A DNA stretch of 64,000 bases. Source: Candidatus Beckwithbacteria bacterium (GTDB lineage: Bacteria; Patescibacteriota; Microgenomatia; UBA1400; CG1-02-47-37). The stretch is from contig JAPLVF010000013.1 in assembly GCA_026397255.1 (NCBI GenBank), positions 150,062 to 214,061 on the forward strand, in the 5' to 3' direction. This document shows positions 6,603 to 46,802 of the stretch, piece by piece (positions within the stretch are counted from its first letter, which is position 1; every line of letters begins with the position of its first letter). The notes beneath the pieces are model-generated. The model had not been told where the DNA came from. It saw only the letters and a list, made by a program, of their open reading frames with translations, and ran no database searches. The translations under genes were made by a program, and so were the position numbers.

Positions 6603-7068
6603 AGAAAGTAAAATTATAATTATTTTCAGTATAGTCTGCTTTCTTTAATAATTTAAAGTGGGAGTAATCGGGGAAAAAGACGTCGGCGTGAAAGTCGCCT
6701 TTAACTTTAGTCACATAAAGCTTATCAACCAAATTTTGGGCTAAAGCCTGACGGTAAATTTCAGCGCCGCCGATAATGAAGACTTCTTTTTTATCGATAG
6801 ACTGAGCTAGATCGATGGCTTCTTTTAAAGAGTGGGTGATCTCTACATTCCGTTTTGGAACGGAATAGGGGTGGCGGGTAACGATAATATTGGTCCGACC
6901 AGGTAAAGATTTGCCTATGGACTCGTAAGTTTTTCTGCCCATAATCACCGGGTGGCCGGTAGTGATGGTTTTAAAATGGCTAAAATCTTTTTTGATATGC
7001 CAAAGCAGCCGGTTTTTAGCGCCGATGCCTAACTTATTATCATGGGCCACAATAATCGAAATTTTCAT
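6583..7068 (-). CDS. folA: Dihydrofolate reductase
   Basis: 161 aa. MKISIIVAHDNKLGIG...LLWH...DF..FK..T.G..VIMGRKTYESIG is the classic DHFR N-terminus, and the gene sits next to thyA. Confidence 0.85.
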   Translation of the reverse strand: MKISIIVAHDNKLGIGAKNRLLWHIKKDFSHFKTITTGHPVIMGRKTYESIGKSLPGRTNIIVTRHPYSVPKRNVEITHSLKEAIDLAQSIDKKEVFIIGGAEIYRQALAQNLVDKLYVTKVKGDFHADVFFPDYSHFKLLKKADYTENNYNFTFYEFTKH

Positions 7069-7075
7069 AAATTTA

Positions 7076-7102
7076 CTCTATCACATTCCGGGAATGTGAT
7101 TA
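7076..7102. repeat. REP-like palindrome, subtype I (copy 1), in the folA-thyA intercistronic gap
   Basis: ctctatcacattccgggaatgtgatta has 10-bp perfectly complementary arms. The same 26 bp recur at 46776-46802. Confidence 0.8.
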
Positions 7103-17732: not shown

Positions 17733-19100
17733 ATGAAGATTAAGCTGCCTGAATTGGTGGTTAAAGTTTTGGAAACTTTGGAAAAGGCCGGATTTGAAGC
17801 TTATGTGGTGGGTGGAGCAGTCAGGGATATCTTAACAGAAACGCCGGTTAAAGATTGGGATTTCACTAGCGATGCTAACCCAGAAGAAATTGTGAAACTA
17901 TTTAAAGAGGCTTTCTATGATAATCGATTTGGAACCGTGGGTGTGGCGGCTAAACATCTGGAAGAACAATTCGGATTAAAAAGTAAGACTGACAGAGTCT
18001 ATGAAATAACCACTTTCAGAAGCGAATCGGGATATTCAGACAGACGGCGGCCGGATAAGGTGGCGTGGGGAAAAAGCTTAAAAGAAGATTTAAAAAGAAG
18101 GGATTTTACTATTAATGCCATGAGTTTTAATAAAAATCTAAAATTGATCGATCCGTTTGAGGGAGAAAAAGATTTAACCAATAAACTAATTAGAGCGGTT
18201 GGCGACCCGAATAAAAGATTTCAAGAAGACGCTTTAAGAATGATGCGGGCAATCAGAATTGCCAGCCAATTAGGTTTTAGCATAGAAATAAAAACCCTGG
18301 CAGCGATTAGTAAAAACAGCACTTTAATTAAACAAATCAGCGCCGAAAGAGTAAGGGATGAATTATTAAAAATTCTGGGCTCGAAATATCCAAAAGACGG
18401 AATTTTATTATTATTCAGCACGGGAATTTTAAAATATATTTTGCCGGAATTAATCGAGACGCGGGAAATCGAACAGGCGGGACACCACACTAAAGATGTT
18501 TGGAATCACAGTTTGGATAGTTTAGCCGCCTCTCCCTCCCCCAACCCGATTATCCGCTTAGCCACTTTACTTCATGATATCGGCAAACCGATGGTTAAGG
18601 CAAGCCGGGAAGGTAAAGAAATTACTTTTTACAACCACGAGGTCGCCGGGGCCAGAATGACGAAACTTATCAGCCGCCGTTTGCGCTTATCAAAAAAAGA
18701 CAGCGACTTGCTATGGTTATTGGTCCGCTGGCATATGTTCGCTTATGAACCGAAAATGACTGATAAAGCTATCAGAAGATTTATCCGCCGGATCGGCAAA
18801 GAAAATATTAATAATATGATAATGCTCCGGGTTGGCGACCGCATTGGCGGCGGAAGCAAGGCGACTTCGTGGCGGCTACGCGAATTACAGGAAAGGATTG
18901 AGCAGGTATTGTATACGCCGATGCAAATTACTGACTTAAAAGTTAACGGTAAAGATGTAATGGACACTTTAAATATTCCAAGCGGACCGAAAGTCGGCCA
19001 AATTTTGAAAAAAATATTTGATGAAGTAATGGAAGACGCCACCAAAAACGACCGGGAGTATTTGTTAAAGAGAATTAAAGAAATACAAACTCATACTTGA
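17733..19100 (+). CDS. cca: CCA-adding tRNA nucleotidyltransferase with HD domain
   Basis: GGAVRDIL...DWDF polymerase-beta head and the HD motif LLHDIGKP. 455 aa. Confidence 0.85.
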   Translation: MKIKLPELVVKVLETLEKAGFEAYVVGGAVRDILTETPVKDWDFTSDANPEEIVKLFKEAFYDNRFGTVGVAAKHLEEQFGLKSKTDRVYEITTFRSESGYSDRRRPDKVAWGKSLKEDLKRRDFTINAMSFNKNLKLIDPFEGEKDLTNKLIRAVGDPNKRFQEDALRMMRAIRIASQLGFSIEIKTLAAISKNSTLIKQISAERVRDELLKILGSKYPKDGILLLFSTGILKYILPELIETREIEQAGHHTKDVWNHSLDSLAASPSPNPIIRLATLLHDIGKPMVKASREGKEITFYNHEVAGARMTKLISRRLRLSKKDSDLLWLLVRWHMFAYEPKMTDKAIRRFIRRIGKENINNMIMLRVGDRIGGGSKATSWRLRELQERIEQVLYTPMQITDLKVNGKDVMDTLNIPSGPKVGQILKKIFDEVMEDATKNDREYLLKRIKEIQTHT

Positions 19101-19139
19101 CATAATGTAACTTTTAAGTTACTATCAATCTAAATTGGC

Positions 19140-19448
19140 ATGAAAAAGATTTATTATGACAAAAATGCTGATAAAGAACTGGCTGAATTTTCCATTTCAG
19201 TTCAAAAAGTTTTCTTATCTTTAATCAATATTTTGAAAACAACCGGAAAACTGGAGTTTCCGGTAACTAAAAAACTTGAGAAAAATCTTTATGAAATCAG
19301 AGTTAAGTTACAAGGAGAATTCCGAGGTTTTTATGCATATATGGGAAAAGAATTTATTGTCATTCTTCACTTTTTCCATAAAAAGACCCAGAAAACACCG
19401 TTAAAAAACCTAAAAACCGCTAAAAGGAGGTTAAAACAATATGAATGA
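19140..19448 (+). CDS. higB: Type II toxin, HigB / Gp49-like (RelE/ParE superfamily)
   Basis: 102 aa. Contains LYEIRV...GFYAY...FIVILHFFHKKTQKTP, characteristic of the Gp49/HigB family. Overlaps the downstream HTH gene by 8 bp. Confidence 0.6.
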   Translation: MKKIYYDKNADKELAEFSISVQKVFLSLINILKTTGKLEFPVTKKLEKNLYEIRVKLQGEFRGFYAYMGKEFIVILHFFHKKTQKTPLKNLKTAKRRLKQYE

Positions 19449-19746
19449 TAAAATTAAAACCGCAATTAAAAGAGGAGATTTAATTTCTTATGATGAAGTT
19501 TTTTCGCGGTATTCTAAAAAACACCAAAGAGAAATTTTAAAACAAGCCCGCTATTTAAAAGCGGCCATGGCCTTAAGAAAATTAAGAAAACAACTGAAAT
19601 TAACCCAAGAAAAATTGGCCAGTAAAATGAAAGTAAAACGGGAATTTATCAGCCGGGCAGAAAGCGGAGAGCAAAACTTAACCCTGGAAACTCTCTATCA
19701 AATCGCCGAAGCGACGGGTAAAAGTTTTCGGTTTCAGTTTAAATAA
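19441..19746 (+). CDS. higA: Type II antitoxin, HigA-like XRE-family HTH protein
   Basis: LTQEKLASKMKVKREFISRAESGEQNLTLETLYQIAEATGK is a canonical HTH_XRE. The toxin-first gene order is that of HigBA. Confidence 0.65.
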   Translation: MNDKIKTAIKRGDLISYDEVFSRYSKKHQREILKQARYLKAAMALRKLRKQLKLTQEKLASKMKVKREFISRAESGEQNLTLETLYQIAEATGKSFRFQFK

Positions 19747-19800
19747 ATCTACGACGCTTCCAAAAACGAGAGGGAATATTTGTTGAAGAAAATTAAAGAT

Positions 19801-19826
19801 TCTCACATACCGGGTGTGTGATAGAG
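19801..19826. repeat. REP-like palindrome (subtype II variant) 5 bp downstream of the RAYT gene stop
   Basis: tctcacataccgggtgtgtgatagag. The arms tcacatacc and ggtgtgtga pair with one G-T wobble. Confidence 0.75.
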
Positions 19827-19830
19827 AAAA

Positions 19831-20517
19831 TTAGTCAGTTTCAGGATTTTCAAGCAAGATGTGTTTAATTATTGATAGTTCTCTTTGATAATCAGCCTGG
19901 CCAAAAATAAAATCTTCATAACCATTAAGTTTTTTAAAATAGTTAACAATAATGTCTTTCTGACAAATTTCATTTTTTAATCTTAAGTATTCCGGAAGTG
20001 AAGAATATTGATAGTCTTTTAAGCTGGAGATTGTCTTGATGATTCCGGAACTATAAGGATTAAGATGGATATAGCGGGTAACGTGTAAAAGTTGTTGTTC
20101 CGTTTCGACTCTTATAGATTTAAATCTTCCTTGGAAAATTGGCCCTATTCTTTTATTCTTAACATTAAAATAATGAGTATAGCTTTCAGATAGTTTGCGC
20201 ATAAATTCAGAAATTCCTTTATCGTTAACTTGTTTTAAGAGAAAATGAAAATGATTAGGCATTAAACAATAACAGATGATCTCTACGAAATATTTTTTTG
20301 ATTCATTTAGTTTTAATAAATACTCTGCTCTTACTGATTGCGGTAATCGGGAAAAGTATGAATACCGCATTGATTGTTGGTAATGCTGATAGTAAAGAGC
20401 AGTTTCTAAGAATCGACGATAATAGCGATTATCATTGAAAATTGGCATTGAAGCTACGCCGCGATTAATAACGTGATAAATTTCCCCTGTAACTAAAGGA
20501 TCTTCTCTACTGGGCAT
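19831..20517 (-). CDS. Y1 HuH tyrosine transposase, REP-associated (RAYT / IS200-like TnpA)
   Basis: HuH motif CLMPNHFHFLL and the catalytic-Tyr motif VTRYIHLNP. The gene is bracketed by inverted REP palindromes (19801-19826 and 20538-20561). Confidence 0.7.
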   Translation of the reverse strand: MPSREDPLVTGEIYHVINRGVASMPIFNDNRYYRRFLETALYYQHYQQSMRYSYFSRLPQSVRAEYLLKLNESKKYFVEIICYCLMPNHFHFLLKQVNDKGISEFMRKLSESYTHYFNVKNKRIGPIFQGRFKSIRVETEQQLLHVTRYIHLNPYSSGIIKTISSLKDYQYSSLPEYLRLKNEICQKDIIVNYFKKLNGYEDFIFGQADYQRELSIIKHILLENPETD

Positions 20518-20537
20518 TGATTTTTATACTACTATTA

Positions 20538-20575
20538 CTATCACACACCGGGTGTGTGATGTCGAGAATGTGATG
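20538..20575. repeat. REP-like palindrome subtype II (copy 3) plus an adjacent half-site
   Basis: ctatcacacaccgggtgtgtgatg has perfect 10-bp arms and is followed by gagaatgtgatg, a subtype-I half-site. The palindrome supplies the last codons (HHTPGV) and stop of secF. Confidence 0.8.
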
Positions 20576-21437
20576 TTTTAATTTCTTCCCAGAGAACTAA
20601 TAAAGGCGCGGCGGTAAAGGTGGAAGAATAGGTGCCGGAGACGGTGCCGATTAATAAGGCAAAAACAAACCATTTAGTGGTGGAACCGCCGAATAAATAC
20701 AAGGCTAAAAGCATAAAAATAATCGTTAAGGAATTATTAAGCGAGCGGCCGAGGGTTTCGGTAACGGCTTTGTTGACTAACTGGGTAAAAGATAATTTAG
20801 GAAAGAGTTTTTGCGATTCACGGATACGGTCATAAACAACAATGGTGTCATGAACAGAAAAAGACAAAATCGTCAACAAGGCGGTGACAAACAAAGAATC
20901 GATTTCCACCCCAAAATAAACTCCTAAGAAAGCAAAGACACCGATCATAATAAAAGTGTCATGCAGCATAGCTAAGATGGCACAAACACCGAATTTGGCA
21001 TTGCGAAAACGATAAGCGACATAGCCAAGAATAAAGCCGGCAGAAAGCAGAATGCCAACAATGGTCTTCAGGATTAATTCTTTTCCCAGCGTCGGTCCAA
21101 TTGTTTCAAAGCGTTTTTCACTGACGGGTCCGAATTTTTGAGAAATGGCTGTCTGCAATTTTTGACTGGCTGATTGGTCGATGACTTGAGAACGGATAAT
21201 AAAGGTGTTAACCCCGGCAGTCTGCAGATTGCTTAAAGCAATTTCTGACTCCACCACCGGACGCAGTTCATTTAAAGCAATATTTTTATCAGATTGAAGG
21301 CTAATTTCCAATAAGCTGCCGCCGGTAAAATCGACGCTGGGCTTTAAACCGTGGCGAATAAGAAAATACAAACCAGGCAGAATAAACAATAAAGAAAAAG
21401 CAAAGTATAAATATTTGTATTTCATGAAGTTGATCAT
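20541..21437 (-). CDS. secF: Protein translocase subunit SecF
   Basis: SecF N-terminus ...SVDFTGGSLLEI and 6 TM segments. The C-terminal SHSRHHTPGV plus stop is encoded by REP copy 3. Confidence 0.9.
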   Translation of the reverse strand: MINFMKYKYLYFAFSLLFILPGLYFLIRHGLKPSVDFTGGSLLEISLQSDKNIALNELRPVVESEIALSNLQTAGVNTFIIRSQVIDQSASQKLQTAISQKFGPVSEKRFETIGPTLGKELILKTIVGILLSAGFILGYVAYRFRNAKFGVCAILAMLHDTFIMIGVFAFLGVYFGVEIDSLFVTALLTILSFSVHDTIVVYDRIRESQKLFPKLSFTQLVNKAVTETLGRSLNNSLTIIFMLLALYLFGGSTTKWFVFALLIGTVSGTYSSTFTAAPLLVLWEEIKTSHSRHHTPGV

Positions 21438-27325: not shown

Positions 27326-27350
27326 CTATCACACACCGGGTGTGTGATTA
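27326..27350. repeat. REP-like palindrome subtype II (copy 4)
   Basis: ctatcacacaccgggtgtgtgatta, identical in its core to copy 3. It provides the terminal NHTPGV plus stop of ORF 27329..27904. Confidence 0.8.
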
Positions 27351-27904
27351 CTCAATAGCTGATGGGGAAAACACTCTTTTATTACCGCTTCTACGATTGC
27401 TTTTCGAACTGATCCATCAGGGATATTAAACCACCTAATGTTAAGACTTCTATTACGTTCCCATAGTATTTCCGATGCTCTGGCTATGGCAAATAATTCC
27501 GGACTAACATCTGTATATAATGAACGGCACTCAGATTTCGCTGCCAACTCATCAAGTTCAAAGGCTATCTCAAGCCTATGGCAAATTTGTTCAATTTCTT
27601 CATTTTTTAAATGATTAAATAATTTATTTCTAGAGGGGTTGTTGATAATAGCTTCGGAAATCTTACCAGGAGCGTCTCCTTCAATATCAGCATTTGCTTG
27701 TTGAGCCGCACTAAATCCTAATAAGCCTATTAAATGGGGATCATCAGTCACAATTCCAGGCAAACTTGGTTTAAAAGTTTCATCGTGGATCGCCTGCCGG
27801 TTAAATTTTCCCCAAAAGAAGGCTGTAGCTAATAGTATTACTTCTTTGTCATGAGGAGAGATATTTTTGAGGAACTCAGAAGGCCGAATCAATTCTTTTC
27901 CCAT
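27329..27904 (-). CDS. Hypothetical protein
   Basis: 191 aa with no recognisable domain and AT-rich codon usage. The C-terminal HTPGV and stop are read from the REP palindrome. Confidence 0.4.
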   Translation of the reverse strand: MGKELIRPSEFLKNISPHDKEVILLATAFFWGKFNRQAIHDETFKPSLPGIVTDDPHLIGLLGFSAAQQANADIEGDAPGKISEAIINNPSRNKLFNHLKNEEIEQICHRLEIAFELDELAAKSECRSLYTDVSPELFAIARASEILWERNRSLNIRWFNIPDGSVRKAIVEAVIKECFPHQLLSNHTPGV

Positions 27905-40362: not shown

Positions 40363-40391
40363 CTGTCAAGCCGAATTTTATGTGATAAAAT
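40363..40391 (+). promoter_or_regulatory. Candidate promoter for tRNA-Pro (-35 ctgtca, 17-bp spacer, extended -10 tgaTAAAAT)
   Basis: The spacing places the transcription start at about 40398-40401, which is the tRNA 5' end. Confidence 0.4.
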
Positions 40392-40400
40392 TCAGGAGAA

Positions 40401-40474
40401 CGGGGATTAGTTTAACGGTAGAATGCGCGCATGGGGTGCGCGTGGCGACAGTTCAATTCTGTCATCCCCGACCA
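40401..40474 (+). tRNA. tRNA-Pro (anticodon GGG), 3' CCA encoded
   Basis: Manual fold: acceptor CGGGGAU/AUCCCCG; D-arm GUUU-AACGGUA-GAAU; anticodon arm CGCGC-AUGGGGU-GCGCG (U33, GGG, G37); variable UGGC; T-arm GACAG-UUCAAUU-CUGUC; discriminator A; then CCA. Confidence 0.7.
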
Positions 40475-42124
40475 ATGAAAAAAATATTAATCAGTTTATT
40501 GATTTGGTTATTATTTCCGGTAAGTTCAGTTTTAGCCGCAGATTATACAGTTGATAACTTTAAAAGCCTGATTGAAATTAACCAGGACACTTCCTTAACC
40601 GTCACGGAAACAATTGAGGCGAATTTTAATGTGGCTAAACACGGAATTTTTCGGATTATTCCGGTGATTTATTCCGCTAACGGCCGGACGATTAACGGTG
40701 AATTTAAGTTGCTGTCGATAAATGCTCCCTACTCAAGCAGCCGATTCAACCAAAGTATCAAACTGCAAATCGGTGATCCTAATAAAACGATTATCGGCAA
40801 ACAAACCTACGTGATTAAATACCAGCTTAATAATATTCTCCAAAGATACCCTGAGCATGACGAACTCTATTGGAACGTGACCGGGCATGAATGGGATACA
40901 ACTATTGCCACGGCCTCAGCCGAAGTAATTTCGCCGTTTGCACCGATTATTAAAAGACAGGATTATAACGAAGGCGAACTGACGATTGCCGTGGCTTTGG
41001 ATAAAAACAGCCAATTGATTTGGCCGACGAAAACTCAAATGGCAGCAAAAACTACAATCAATAACTGGGGCTATCCGGTCGCCCTGCTGCCGGTCTTAGT
41101 GATGTTTGGGTTTTGGCTGAAAAAAGGCCGGGATAAACGCTACACAACCGATAATTTGTATGTAAAGGGTCAAAAAACTAAGACTGTGGCAATATTTGAA
41201 CACAAATTTTTACCCAGTGTTTACTCGCCGATTGACAACCTGACGCCGAGTGAAGCCGGGACAATTTTAGATCAGAAAGTGGATACCAAAGATGTGGTGG
41301 CAGAAATAATTGAACTGGGGCGGTTGGGATTTTTGACGATTAAAAGAACGGAAGTGAAAAAATTCCTGTATAAAAACACTGATTATGTTTTGACCAAACA
41401 AAATAAAGACACGAAAAATTTAAGAAATTACCAAAAATATTTATTGGAAAAGATTTTTGGTAACAAGCAAACAGTCAAATTATCAGAAATGAAAAATAGT
41501 TTTTACCAGTATTTGGAAGAATTCAGGAAAAAAGTGAACCAGTATTTGGCCGACGAAAAAATCTTTGACGGCAACCCCAAACAGGTAAAAACTAAGTGGA
41601 CCGGTATTGGTTTTCTGATGATGGCCGGCGGGCTGGTAGGGGTAATAAATTTTGCCAGTTTAACGGCTAATTCCGGACCAATTGGCATACTGGCTTTAAC
41701 TCTTATCCCTTTAATCATGCTCGTGAAAAATATGCCGGCCAGAACCGCCTGGGGATACTCACTGTTACGACAAATTGAAGGCTTAAAGTGGTATTTAGGT
41801 AAAGGGAAATGGCGGGAAGAAATTGCCGAGAAAAACTTGTTTTTAGGCGATATGCTGCCTTTAGCAATTGCTTTGGGAGTAGTCAATCAGCTGGCTAAGG
41901 ATATGGCCGGCTTGGGAATTCCGCCGCCTAGTTATTTGCAGGGTTTTAGCGTGGTGAATTTTAATTCCCAGTTAAATCATTTAACTAATAACAGCACTGC
42001 GGCAATTATCAGCTCGCCGAGCGGCTCAAAATGGAGCGGTTCGTCTTCCTGGTCAGGCGGTTCCGGTTTTTCCGGCGGTTCATCAGGCGGTGGTTTCGGC
42101 GGCGGCGGCGGGGGTAGTTGGTAA
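40475..42124 (+). CDS. DUF2207-family membrane protein with a C-terminal Gly/Ser-rich tail
   Basis: Signal peptide MKKILISLLIWLLFPVSSVLA, a DUF2207-like N-domain (YTVDNFKSLIEINQDTSLTVTETIEANF...HGIFRIIP), TM helices and a GGSSGGGFGGGGGGSW tail. The ATG follows the tRNA CCA directly. Confidence 0.6.
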   Translation: MKKILISLLIWLLFPVSSVLAADYTVDNFKSLIEINQDTSLTVTETIEANFNVAKHGIFRIIPVIYSANGRTINGEFKLLSINAPYSSSRFNQSIKLQIGDPNKTIIGKQTYVIKYQLNNILQRYPEHDELYWNVTGHEWDTTIATASAEVISPFAPIIKRQDYNEGELTIAVALDKNSQLIWPTKTQMAAKTTINNWGYPVALLPVLVMFGFWLKKGRDKRYTTDNLYVKGQKTKTVAIFEHKFLPSVYSPIDNLTPSEAGTILDQKVDTKDVVAEIIELGRLGFLTIKRTEVKKFLYKNTDYVLTKQNKDTKNLRNYQKYLLEKIFGNKQTVKLSEMKNSFYQYLEEFRKKVNQYLADEKIFDGNPKQVKTKWTGIGFLMMAGGLVGVINFASLTANSGPIGILALTLIPLIMLVKNMPARTAWGYSLLRQIEGLKWYLGKGKWREEIAEKNLFLGDMLPLAIALGVVNQLAKDMAGLGIPPPSYLQGFSVVNFNSQLNHLTNNSTAAIISSPSGSKWSGSSSWSGGSGFSGGSSGGGFGGGGGGSW

Positions 42125-45919: not shown

Positions 45920-46769
45920 ATTCAGTGCGGTCTGGGTATCGCATTCGTCAATTTCCGATTGGCTGGCTTGCCCGCGGGCATATTATTTAAAAAATGTTTA
46001 CAAAGATCCGAAAACCGGGAGAAAAACGACCTTAATTAATCCGGCAATGGCCTTAGGACAGGCGGTCCACGAAGTGGTTGAAGGTTTGTCGGTATTATCA
46101 GTCGAGCGGAGATTTAGCCAATCTTTACTGGAAAAGCTGGAGGTCGTCTGGAAAAAAATCAGCGGGAAACGGGGCGGATTTTTAAACGAGAAAATTGAGG
46201 GTGAGTATAAACAACGGGGCCGAGAAATGCTCAAACGCGTAGAAACCAATCCCGGGGTGCTAAAAAATCTGGCAGTAAAAATTAAAATGGAACTACCCTA
46301 CTACTGGCTGTCGGAAAAAGACAATATTATTTTGTGCGGCAAAATCGACTGGCTGGAATACCTGAAAGAAACCGACAGTGTTCACATTATTGATTTTAAA
46401 ACCGGTAAAGATAATGAAAAAGCGGATTCACTGCAACTGCCAATTTATTATCTGCTGGCAACCAACACGCAAAAACGGCCGGTAACAAAAATGAGTTATT
46501 GGTACATTGATAGGGAAAACGAACCGGTAGAAAGAAAACTGCCGGACATTGATAAGGCCCGAGAGAAAATCCTGAAAATTGCCAAAGAGATGAAATTGGC
46601 CAGGCAACTGAACCGGTTTAAGTGCCCGACCAATGGTTGCCGGGAATGCAAGCCGATGGAGGCAATTATTAACGGTGAAGGTGAATTTGTGGGGAAAGAC
46701 GAAATCGGCCGAAGTGTGTATATTTTAACCAAATGTGAGAATCAAATCGGCAAAAGCGAGATTTTGTAA
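45906..46769 (+). CDS. PD-(D/E)XK nuclease with 4-Cys cluster (Cas4/RecB-like)
   Basis: SHSSISDWLACPRAYYL (N-terminal Cys), IDFKTGK (D...K) and C-terminal CPTNGCRECKP. This four-cysteine arrangement is typical of Cas4-like Fe-S nucleases. Confidence 0.6.
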   Translation: MDKDKFSAVWVSHSSISDWLACPRAYYLKNVYKDPKTGRKTTLINPAMALGQAVHEVVEGLSVLSVERRFSQSLLEKLEVVWKKISGKRGGFLNEKIEGEYKQRGREMLKRVETNPGVLKNLAVKIKMELPYYWLSEKDNIILCGKIDWLEYLKETDSVHIIDFKTGKDNEKADSLQLPIYYLLATNTQKRPVTKMSYWYIDRENEPVERKLPDIDKAREKILKIAKEMKLARQLNRFKCPTNGCRECKPMEAIINGEGEFVGKDEIGRSVYILTKCENQIGKSEIL

Positions 46770-46775
46770 AAATAC

Positions 46776-46802
46776 CTCTATCACATTCCGGGAATGTGAT
46801 TG
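46776..46802. repeat. REP-like palindrome subtype I (copy 5)
   Basis: ctctatcacattccgggaatgtgattg. It shares 26 identical bp with the copy at 7076-7102. Confidence 0.8.

Follow-up and report, generated by a model that had tools for sequence, protein, structure and literature searches.

A probable domesticated Y1 endonuclease gene with cognate hairpin palindromes in a Candidatus Beckwithbacteria genome

The Y1 gene and its flanking palindromes

We analysed a 64-kb stretch of DNA (the window) that carries a gene for a 228-amino acid protein of the HUH/Y1 type between two copies of a short palindrome. From the sequence of the window the original prediction had described this arrangement as a complete system of repetitive extragenic palindromes (REP) and a REP-associated tyrosine transposase (RAYT), in what looked like a genome of the Candidate Phyla Radiation (CPR), and the source of the DNA is indeed a metagenome-assembled genome (MAG) of Candidatus Beckwithbacteria. 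Based on the evidence below, we consider it likely that a RAYT-superfamily enzyme, a domesticated and vertically inherited Y1/HUH single-stranded DNA (ssDNA) endonuclease, is encoded at the locus and is accompanied by the hairpin element cognate to it. The following features are located in the window.

19831..20517, minus strand: gene for the HUH/Y1 protein, 228 amino acids, with the HuH motif N88-H89-F-H91, the catalytic Y149 in RYIHLNP and a helical C-terminal tail (residues 156-228)
20538..20562, no strand assigned: upstream flanking palindrome CTATCACACACCGGGTGTGTGATGT, separated from the Y1 start codon by 20 nt and forming the last codons and the stop of secF (HTPGV-stop)
19800..19824, no strand assigned: downstream flanking palindrome TTCTCACATACCGGGTGTGTGATAG, with one T.G stem pair, 6 nt past the Y1 stop codon; a remnant of the 3' end of the CCA-adding enzyme gene (CCA gene) reads into it (..KKIKDSHIPGV and a double stop)
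20566..20575, no strand assigned: extra half-site AATGTGATGT, a right-arm repeat adjoining the upstream palindrome
7078..7102, no strand assigned: solo palindrome of subtype TT/AA in the thyA-folA gap; its final triplet is the thyA stop (7100-7102), with 9 nt to the folA start codon
27326..27350, no strand assigned: solo palindrome of subtype CA/TG where two genes of unknown function converge, ending the open reading frame (ORF) 27329-27904 on the minus strand
46778..46802, no strand assigned: solo palindrome of subtype TT/AA, flanked by a PD-(D/E)XK nuclease gene and rpsI, each with its 3' end toward the palindrome

The predicted palindrome consensus was scanned over the window, and 100 dinucleotide-preserving shuffles served as the control. 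All five palindromes that had been claimed were present with zero to two mismatches each, in comparison to no match at all in the shuffled windows, and the reported 26-nt identity between two of them was confirmed (7076-7101 and 46776-46801). Relaxing the 19-nt core to five or fewer mismatches gave no sixth copy, and no degenerate extras were found in the 64 kb. Folded as ssDNA, every copy is predicted to form a hairpin with a stem of 8-12 bp and a 3-nt loop (-3.5 to -8 kcal/mol), the stems being perfect or holding a single T.G pair.

All five copies are located at gene ends. The prediction had placed them in short gaps there, but the contact is closer: secF (ORF 20541-21437, minus strand) runs through the upstream palindrome and uses its terminal TGA as stop, ORF 27329-27904 terminates likewise at the palindrome TGA (tail ..NHTPGV-stop), and the thyA stop also lies within a palindrome. 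The palindrome carries a terminal TGA (often TGATAG) on each strand and reads TCA...TGA, often CTA...TAG. The bracketing of the Y1 gene was as predicted, except that the gaps are 6 nt after the stop (not 5) and 20 nt before the start (not 21). The centre of the loop is G on the plus strand in both flanking copies (both CCGGG), and by that criterion they are direct repeats; the CTAT/ATAG foot points to the Y1 gene from both sides, and by that criterion they are inverted.

An Rfam scan of the whole window gave tRNA only, and the palindrome matched no known RNA family. Promoter and terminator scanning of 19000-21000 revealed no T-tract terminator at the palindromes and promoter-like matches at chance level, with a score of just 9/12 for the -35/-10-like pair that encloses the upstream palindrome. 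The GC skew over the window defined no replichore switch.

The two identical copies have left-hand flanks that agree at 16 of 24 nt (7054-7077 and 46754-46777; AANCGANATTTT...); one of these flanks forms the first folA codons, the other contains the final codons of the nuclease gene, and their likeness may reflect a carried-along flank or chance. Three other ideas were set aside: a DNA-uptake sequence was dropped because the copy number is far too low, a restriction site (CCSGG centre) was dropped with nothing in its support, and the resemblance of TATCACA to a DnaA box (TTATNCACA) minus one base was regarded as coincidence.

The Y1 protein

The product of ORF 19831-20517 is the predicted protein with NHFHFLL and RYIHLNP, and it contains IFQGRF as a further motif. 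The profile check of its transposase domain was positive, with a match to Pfam Y1_Tnp of 36 bits (cut-off 23), and NCBIfam NF047646 REP_Tyr_transpos matched at 56.4 bits, under the 80-bit equivalog cut-off. E. coli TnpA_REP (4er8) was the closest solved structure by sequence (E 1e-4) and also the top Foldseek match (E 6.8e-7) of an AlphaFold model from 30 homologues, which was confident (predicted local distance difference test score, pLDDT, 90.8). Residues N88, H89, H91, Y149, N153 and P154 are invariant in the alignment of 30 homologues, and the motif at the catalytic tyrosine is Y-x3-NP (class 2). The tail (156-228) is helical and conserved among the homologues; it had no Pfam match, helix-turn-helix and DnaA-like domains included, and its profile gave no significant match in the PDB.

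A Candidatus Beckwithbacteria MAG has the identical protein on record under the name 'transposase'. The homologue search gave about 1,800 proteins, the few named by source being labelled Beckwithbacteria, Gottesmanbacteria or Patescibacteria group. The window holds one Y1 gene, with no tnpB partner. Relatives in the plasmid collection were all below 41% identity, and viral contigs yielded one weak relative (25% identity). Over the core, 30% identity (E 1e-18) was seen with a Pseudomonas plasmid protein whose motifs NHVH, WE and YIELNP are among those of TnpA_Y1 subclass 2.1.

The palindrome in other genomes

We scanned the core TCACAYWCCGGGWRTGTGAT against one genome per species (185,579 species). 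It matched 78 stretches, mostly in MAGs titled Patescibacteria or Microgenomates, and it is common to MAGs titled Beckwith-, Ames- and Gottesmanbacteria; from the degeneracy of the pattern and the size of the collection, our own arithmetic puts the chance expectation for the whole collection at about 17 matches. In the complete 1.05-Mb genome CP011210 there are five exact core matches, two of them flanking a Y1 gene, which is the single Y1 match in the fetched stretches of that genome. The richest draft, MEXE01 (Amesbacteria), has 12 exact matches. Y1 homologues of 38-76% identity with the core immediately adjoining were present at nine of the fetched loci, which are numbered with L (L002, L010, L013, L014, L045, L051, L059, L073 and L074).

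In the fetched loci 19 long ORFs stop at the palindrome TGA and about six cross it in other frames, stopping within 30 nt; spurious ORFs blur the denominator, and no target-site preference is read from these counts. Repeat-encoded tails were also seen on unrelated ORFs, namely YHTPGV-stop and YHIPGV-stop at L077 (5129-5293 and 6349-6747), and the ORF at L072 3566-3826, with the tail ..YHTPGVG, crosses a degenerate, unmatched copy. In JAHJSD01 (Patescibacteria; L025, L042, L049, L058, L060 and L068) the 19-nt core is located at the apex of a longer palindrome, about 65 nt in length (aattcccgaggtgtcaaccta / taggttgacacctcaggaatt), of which several copies retain one outer arm only. Third-party bins titled 'uncultured Pseudomonadales' or 'Gammaproteobacteria' (e.g. 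CAZYUF01, CAYICL01 and CAYGFS01) hold Beckwithbacteria-like genes, with identities to the window proteins of 87% for SecF, 84% for ThyA and 69.5% for Y1, and their titles are probably mislabelled.

Conservation of the locus

The order CCA gene, palindrome, Y1 gene (on the opposite strand), palindrome, secF and secD is kept in four relatives. All six elements were seen in the contig of L013 and L040, and in L002, L045 and L059 the order was followed as far as each fetched stretch extends. The Y1 proteins of these relatives are 70-76% identical to the window protein. Because the locus is syntenic in four relatives at this level of Y1 identity, it is old and vertically inherited, which points to a domesticated gene and not to an active insertion sequence.

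Solo sites are conserved as well. A palindrome after thyA in L039 is orthologous to the window site at 7078, and one just past the rpsI stop in L044 is orthologous to the site at 46778; in L012 and L007 it follows rpsI-like 3' ends (..QSPKR-stop), the ends having been read by eye from the flanks. The solo copies at the thyA and rpsI ends are also old. As the Y1 locus and both of these solo sites are orthologous in diverged relatives, the recent mobility suggested by the original prediction was overstated. In L051 (5920-7251, Microgenomates) a Y1 gene with both palindromes adjoins the rpsI orthologue, where the window has the solo copy 46778; judged from this arrangement, solo copies might be former or alternative Y1 positions.

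The intact CCA gene of L002 terminates in ..KRIKQLYHTPGV and a double stop within the palindrome, and secF terminates likewise. At the corresponding place in the window (19082-19799) a toxin-antitoxin pair (19140-19448 and 19441-19746, plus strand) has been inserted between the CCA gene and the palindrome, with genes for a toxin of the Gp49/HigB-like type and for an HTH_3 (HigA-like) antitoxin. A 54-nt direct repeat of the CCA 3' end (19028-19081 and 19746-19799, 81% identity) flanks the insert on both sides and adds one feature to the list.

19746..19799, plus strand: diverged duplicate (81%) of the CCA gene 3' end, a copy of 19028-19081, in frame with the palindrome

This duplicate marks the ancestral state, a CCA gene ending inside the palindrome. 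The CCA gene of the window now terminates in ..KEIQTHT-stop, and its former end, ..KKIKDSHIPGV with the double stop, persists as the remnant. In L002 and L013 the CCA gene abuts the palindrome and leaves no room for the toxin-antitoxin cassette, and HigB and HigA queries had no matches in the fetched loci. The new CCA end (CTCATAC/TTGACA) may retain part of a palindrome arm, in which case the junction could lie inside a copy of the palindrome. A strong promoter-like site, TTGACA-17-TACTAT (19097-19125), overlaps the new CCA stop codon.

Gain and concerted change of copies

Over longer time gains and concerted change of copies are visible. L040 has a palindrome between secD and secF, where neither the window nor L002 has one. 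At orthologous sites the two arms have changed in a matched manner: the thyA and rpsI sites of the window are of subtype TT/AA, as is the rpsI site of L012, and those of L039, L044 and L007 are CA/TG. Among perfect arm variants we counted CA/TG 56 times, TA/TA 7 times, CT/AG 7 times and TT/AA 4 times, and the 74 perfect arm pairs compare with 48 expected under independence of the arms (relatedness uncorrected). Partial arm duplications adjoin full copies in L020, L049 and L073, like the half-site 20566-20575 of the window; arm repeats resembling that half-site also adjoin copies in L010, L047, L048 and L079. Some copies have repeated TGTGATG half-sites beside them.

Flanking palindromes in the wider Y1 family

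A metagenome scan that used the alignment of the protein as query gave 80 loci with homologues of 32-58% identity, 65 of them with both flanks. The same palindrome (two or fewer mismatches) was found both upstream and downstream of the Y1 gene at no fewer than 29 of these 65 loci. The upstream copy is typically positioned about 10-45 nt before the Y1 start codon across lineages, and both direct and inverted orientations of the flanking copies occur. The palindromes are lineage-specific (e.g. TTCCACCTCTAAGGTGGAA, TACACCTCCGAGGTGTA, TTCAACACCGGGTGTTGAA, AAGAGGTCGGACCTCTT and CCTGCAGGGCCAGGCCCTGCAGG), and in a neighbour-joining protein tree their relatedness follows that of the proteins.

L136 (2968-3642) has two palindrome copies in frame within its Y1 gene, encoding SLQGQALQA and PAGPGPAGL. 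The lineage's own palindrome matches once or twice inside the Y1 gene also at L137, L146, L115, L123, L126, L134, L148, L149 and L152. The co-variation and the in-frame insertions fit a cognate partnership of enzyme and hairpin, and not a general terminator or operator.

Comparison with known systems

Quentin et al. (2018) have split the TnpA_Y1 proteins into 12 subclasses (PMC6006769). Their subclass 2.1 has the motifs NH[YF]H or NHVH, FQ or W[EQ], and Y[IV]HLNP or YIELNP (Table 1, PMC6006769), a median length of 238 amino acids and a C-terminal tail that resembles the helix-turn-helix domains Bac_DnaA_C, HTH_23 and HTH_28 (PMC6006769). It corresponds to the Group 1 RAYTs of Bertels et al. 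2017 (PMC5581495) and largely to the TIRYTs of Di Nocera et al. 2013 (PMC3733652). The 16-mers flanking Group 1 RAYT genes have a copy number of about 12 per replicon (PMC5581495), vertical inheritance has been described for domesticated RAYTs (PMC5581495), and TIRYT genes are flanked by inverted repeats, some self-complementary, in moderately abundant families (PMC3733652).

By its motifs, length and tail the window protein appears closest to subclass 2.1/Group 1/TIRYT and not to the REP-associated subclasses. NHFH, FQ and YIHLNP match the second motif set, the 228 amino acids are near the median of 238, and a C-terminal tail and a low-copy gene are shared. The bracketing self-complementary repeats form a small family, as for Group 1 RAYTs, and their low copy number agrees with about 12 per replicon. 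There are differences as well: the flanks are short perfect hairpins instead of the long terminal inverted repeats with GGGGWSAS of TIRtrons, the similarity of the tail to helix-turn-helix or DnaA_C-like domains was not detected in the window protein, and the host is a CPR bacterium, a group unmentioned in those complete-genome surveys.

We applied the canonical REP/RAYT REPtron criteria after Nunvar 2010 and Ton-Hoang 2012. In common with canonical REPtrons, the window has a Y1/HUH protein with HuH, a single catalytic tyrosine and Y-x3-NP, encoded by a palindrome-bracketed gene at a syntenic, vertically inherited locus. The E. coli REP system (TnpA_REP, subclass 2.2/Group 2) differs in that its hairpin is imperfect with a bulge, whereas the hairpin is perfect here, and in its hundreds of copies (canonical systems have tens to hundreds), as opposed to about 5-12 exact copies per genome of about 1 Mb. 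The window protein is 60 amino acids longer than E. coli TnpA_REP, and its NCBIfam score is under the equivalog threshold. Doublets of the BIME or REPIN kind were not seen, as no two window copies lie within 700 nt of each other and the relatives L020, L049 and L073 have partial arm duplications only. The REP/RAYT (REPIN) architecture of the original prediction therefore stands as far as a RAYT-superfamily protein with a cognate palindrome is concerned, but the system is not a canonical REP or REPIN one: it has no guide, a perfect hairpin, a low copy number, no doublets and a profile score of 56 instead of 80 bits.

The 25-nt CTAT...ATAG form has the same tetranucleotide at both feet, like the double-foot REP of subclass 2.4 (Group 4), and in-frame palindromes inside the Y1 gene (L136, and intragenic matches in L137 and L146) have been published as unique to subclass 2.4; the motifs WQ and YIxNNP of that subclass are absent here, and the foot is not GT[AG]G. 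With the TnpA of the IS200/IS605 elements IS608 and ISDra2 the protein shares the HUH/Y1 fold and, by analogy, may share hairpin recognition on ssDNA. It differs from them in having Y-x3-NP and not the Y-x3-Q of IS200 transposases (PMC6006769), 228 instead of about 150 amino acids and no tnpB, and its gene is single and syntenic, with two identical ends in place of distinct left and right ones. Literature searches found no paper on RAYT/REP systems in CPR bacteria, the lone match being a K07491 annotation in an archaeon.

A probable cognate enzyme and hairpin

Taken together, we favour a domesticated Y1 endonuclease and its cognate hairpin on account of the protein fold and catalytic motifs, the flanking arrangement, the recurrence and co-variation across lineages, the synteny, the lineage-specific gains and the in-frame insertions. 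By analogy with E. coli TnpA_REP and IS608 TnpA, the window protein would bind, cleave and mobilise DNA. In ssDNA, e.g. at the replication fork, the palindrome of 19-25 nt would fold to a hairpin of 9-12 bp with a 3-nt loop. The Y1 protein would bind this hairpin, and would cut and rejoin the strand at the hairpin foot via Tyr149 and the HuH metal site, which may occasionally copy, move or homogenise palindromes. The Y1 gene is located between two copies, as in a REPtron or TIRtron, and a handful of other copies persist in the very short intergenic gaps of this streamlined genome. Because of the in-frame double stop on both strands, insertion of a palindrome over the final codons of a gene, or in their place, could be harmless, which would account for the persistence of the element in a genome that has hardly any intergenic space. 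A fixed copy may in addition serve as an RNA 3'-end hairpin.

Several points weigh against this interpretation. Subclass 2.1 is a subclass for which Quentin et al. 2018 found no REP-like sequences (PMC6006769), and the activity of its proteins, that of the window included, is putative. The GT[AG]G/GTAG guide of E. coli REPs is absent, the foot being CTAT or variable, and the guide-binding position has FQ in the window protein in contrast to WQ or WE in guide-reading RAYTs. Canonical REPtron flanks are inverted, whereas the window flanks are direct by loop centre. Just about 45% of the distant homologues passed the simple two-sided flank test. When the loop-centre base was compared with whichever coding strand dominates locally, the counts were 42 versus 30; this difference is not significant, and no replication-strand signature was detected. 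Finally, the term 'mobile element' rests on few gain events and concerted change, at a very low copy number.

The palindromes may alternatively be unmobilised host cis-elements, either RNA 3'-end hairpins acting as terminators or stabilisers, or double-stranded operators bound by the C-terminal tail, with the Y1 protein as a regulator or unrelated to the dispersed copies. We regard this as unlikely. It agrees with the position of every copy at gene ends, often between convergent genes, with the conserved orthologous positions of several sites and with the TGTGATG half-sites beside some copies; also in its favour, the upstream copy is 12-45 nt from the Y1 start codon in many lineages and between a weak -35/-10-like pair in the window. 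However, no copy is followed by a T-tract, the promoter and terminator scans were at chance level, Rfam gave no match, and the tail has no detectable helix-turn-helix or DnaA-like match. The palindrome also varies with the Y1 lineage yet stays self-complementary, as predicted by a hairpin-reading enzyme and not by a general terminator, and copies occur at new sites (secD/secF in L040) and in frame within coding sequence. An exapted RNA or regulatory role added on top of the Y1 partnership is possible.

Very improbable, in our view, is that palindrome, Y1 gene and palindrome form an autonomous insertion sequence of the IS200/IS605 type, the solo palindromes being miniature derivatives or excision scars. 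The Y1_Tnp fold and the hairpins at both ends, as in IS608 and ISDra2, are compatible with such an element, and the flanks are direct by loop centre, as the left and right ends of IS200/IS605 are. Against it, the four syntenic relatives with Y1 proteins merely 70-76% identical indicate long vertical descent, and there is one Y1 gene in the window and one Y1 match in the fetched CP011210 stretches. The motif is Y-x3-NP (class 2) and not Y-x3-Q (PMC6006769), tnpB is missing, the same palindrome stands at both ends instead of distinct left and right ends, and relatives on mobile DNA are limited to one weak viral-contig protein (25%) and plasmid proteins all below 41%.

A chance origin of the inverted repeats, as local features unrelated to one another, has next to no probability, as it has only the shortness of the motif in its favour, in comparison to five observed and no shuffled matches, 78 stretches concentrated in one bacterial group where about 17 would arise by chance, and copies that recur adjoining homologous Y1 genes.

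Starting from the favoured partnership of Y1 endonuclease and hairpin, a broader proposal can be made, which we put forward tentatively and hold to be somewhat doubtful. Subclass 2.1/Group 1, the largest class of RAYTs, might have cognate hairpins throughout a large CPR-centred family, in an ancient, vertical partnership of very low copy number. The palindromes would be portable gene-end modules, each combining a hairpin with a double stop on either strand, and would define the 3' termini of the essential genes secF, thyA, rpsI and that of the CCA-adding enzyme in streamlined genomes, and the Y1 protein would maintain and homogenise the copies.

Other observations in the window

A tRNA-Pro (GGG) at 40401-40474 sits within the 5' end of the listed 580-amino acid ORF 40382-42124 (GTG start). 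That gene probably begins only after the tRNA.

Significance

Among relatives of the proteobacterial REP/RAYT systems, the window system is one of low copy number, and represents an extension and no new kind of system. The partnership of a domesticated ssDNA transposase with its own hairpin repeats would thereby be extended to the Candidate Phyla Radiation, and to a protein subclass reported to be without REP-like sequences. For annotators, the HTPGV-stop tails are a caution that some C-termini here are repeat-encoded. As lineage markers, the palindrome and the syntenic Y1 locus can be used to recognise Beckwithbacteria and related Microgenomates. The low copy number in genomes of about 1 Mb offers a contrast case for models of the persistence of repeat populations, and as palindrome and protein co-vary over many lineages, they provide natural enzyme-hairpin pairs for the study of recognition specificity.

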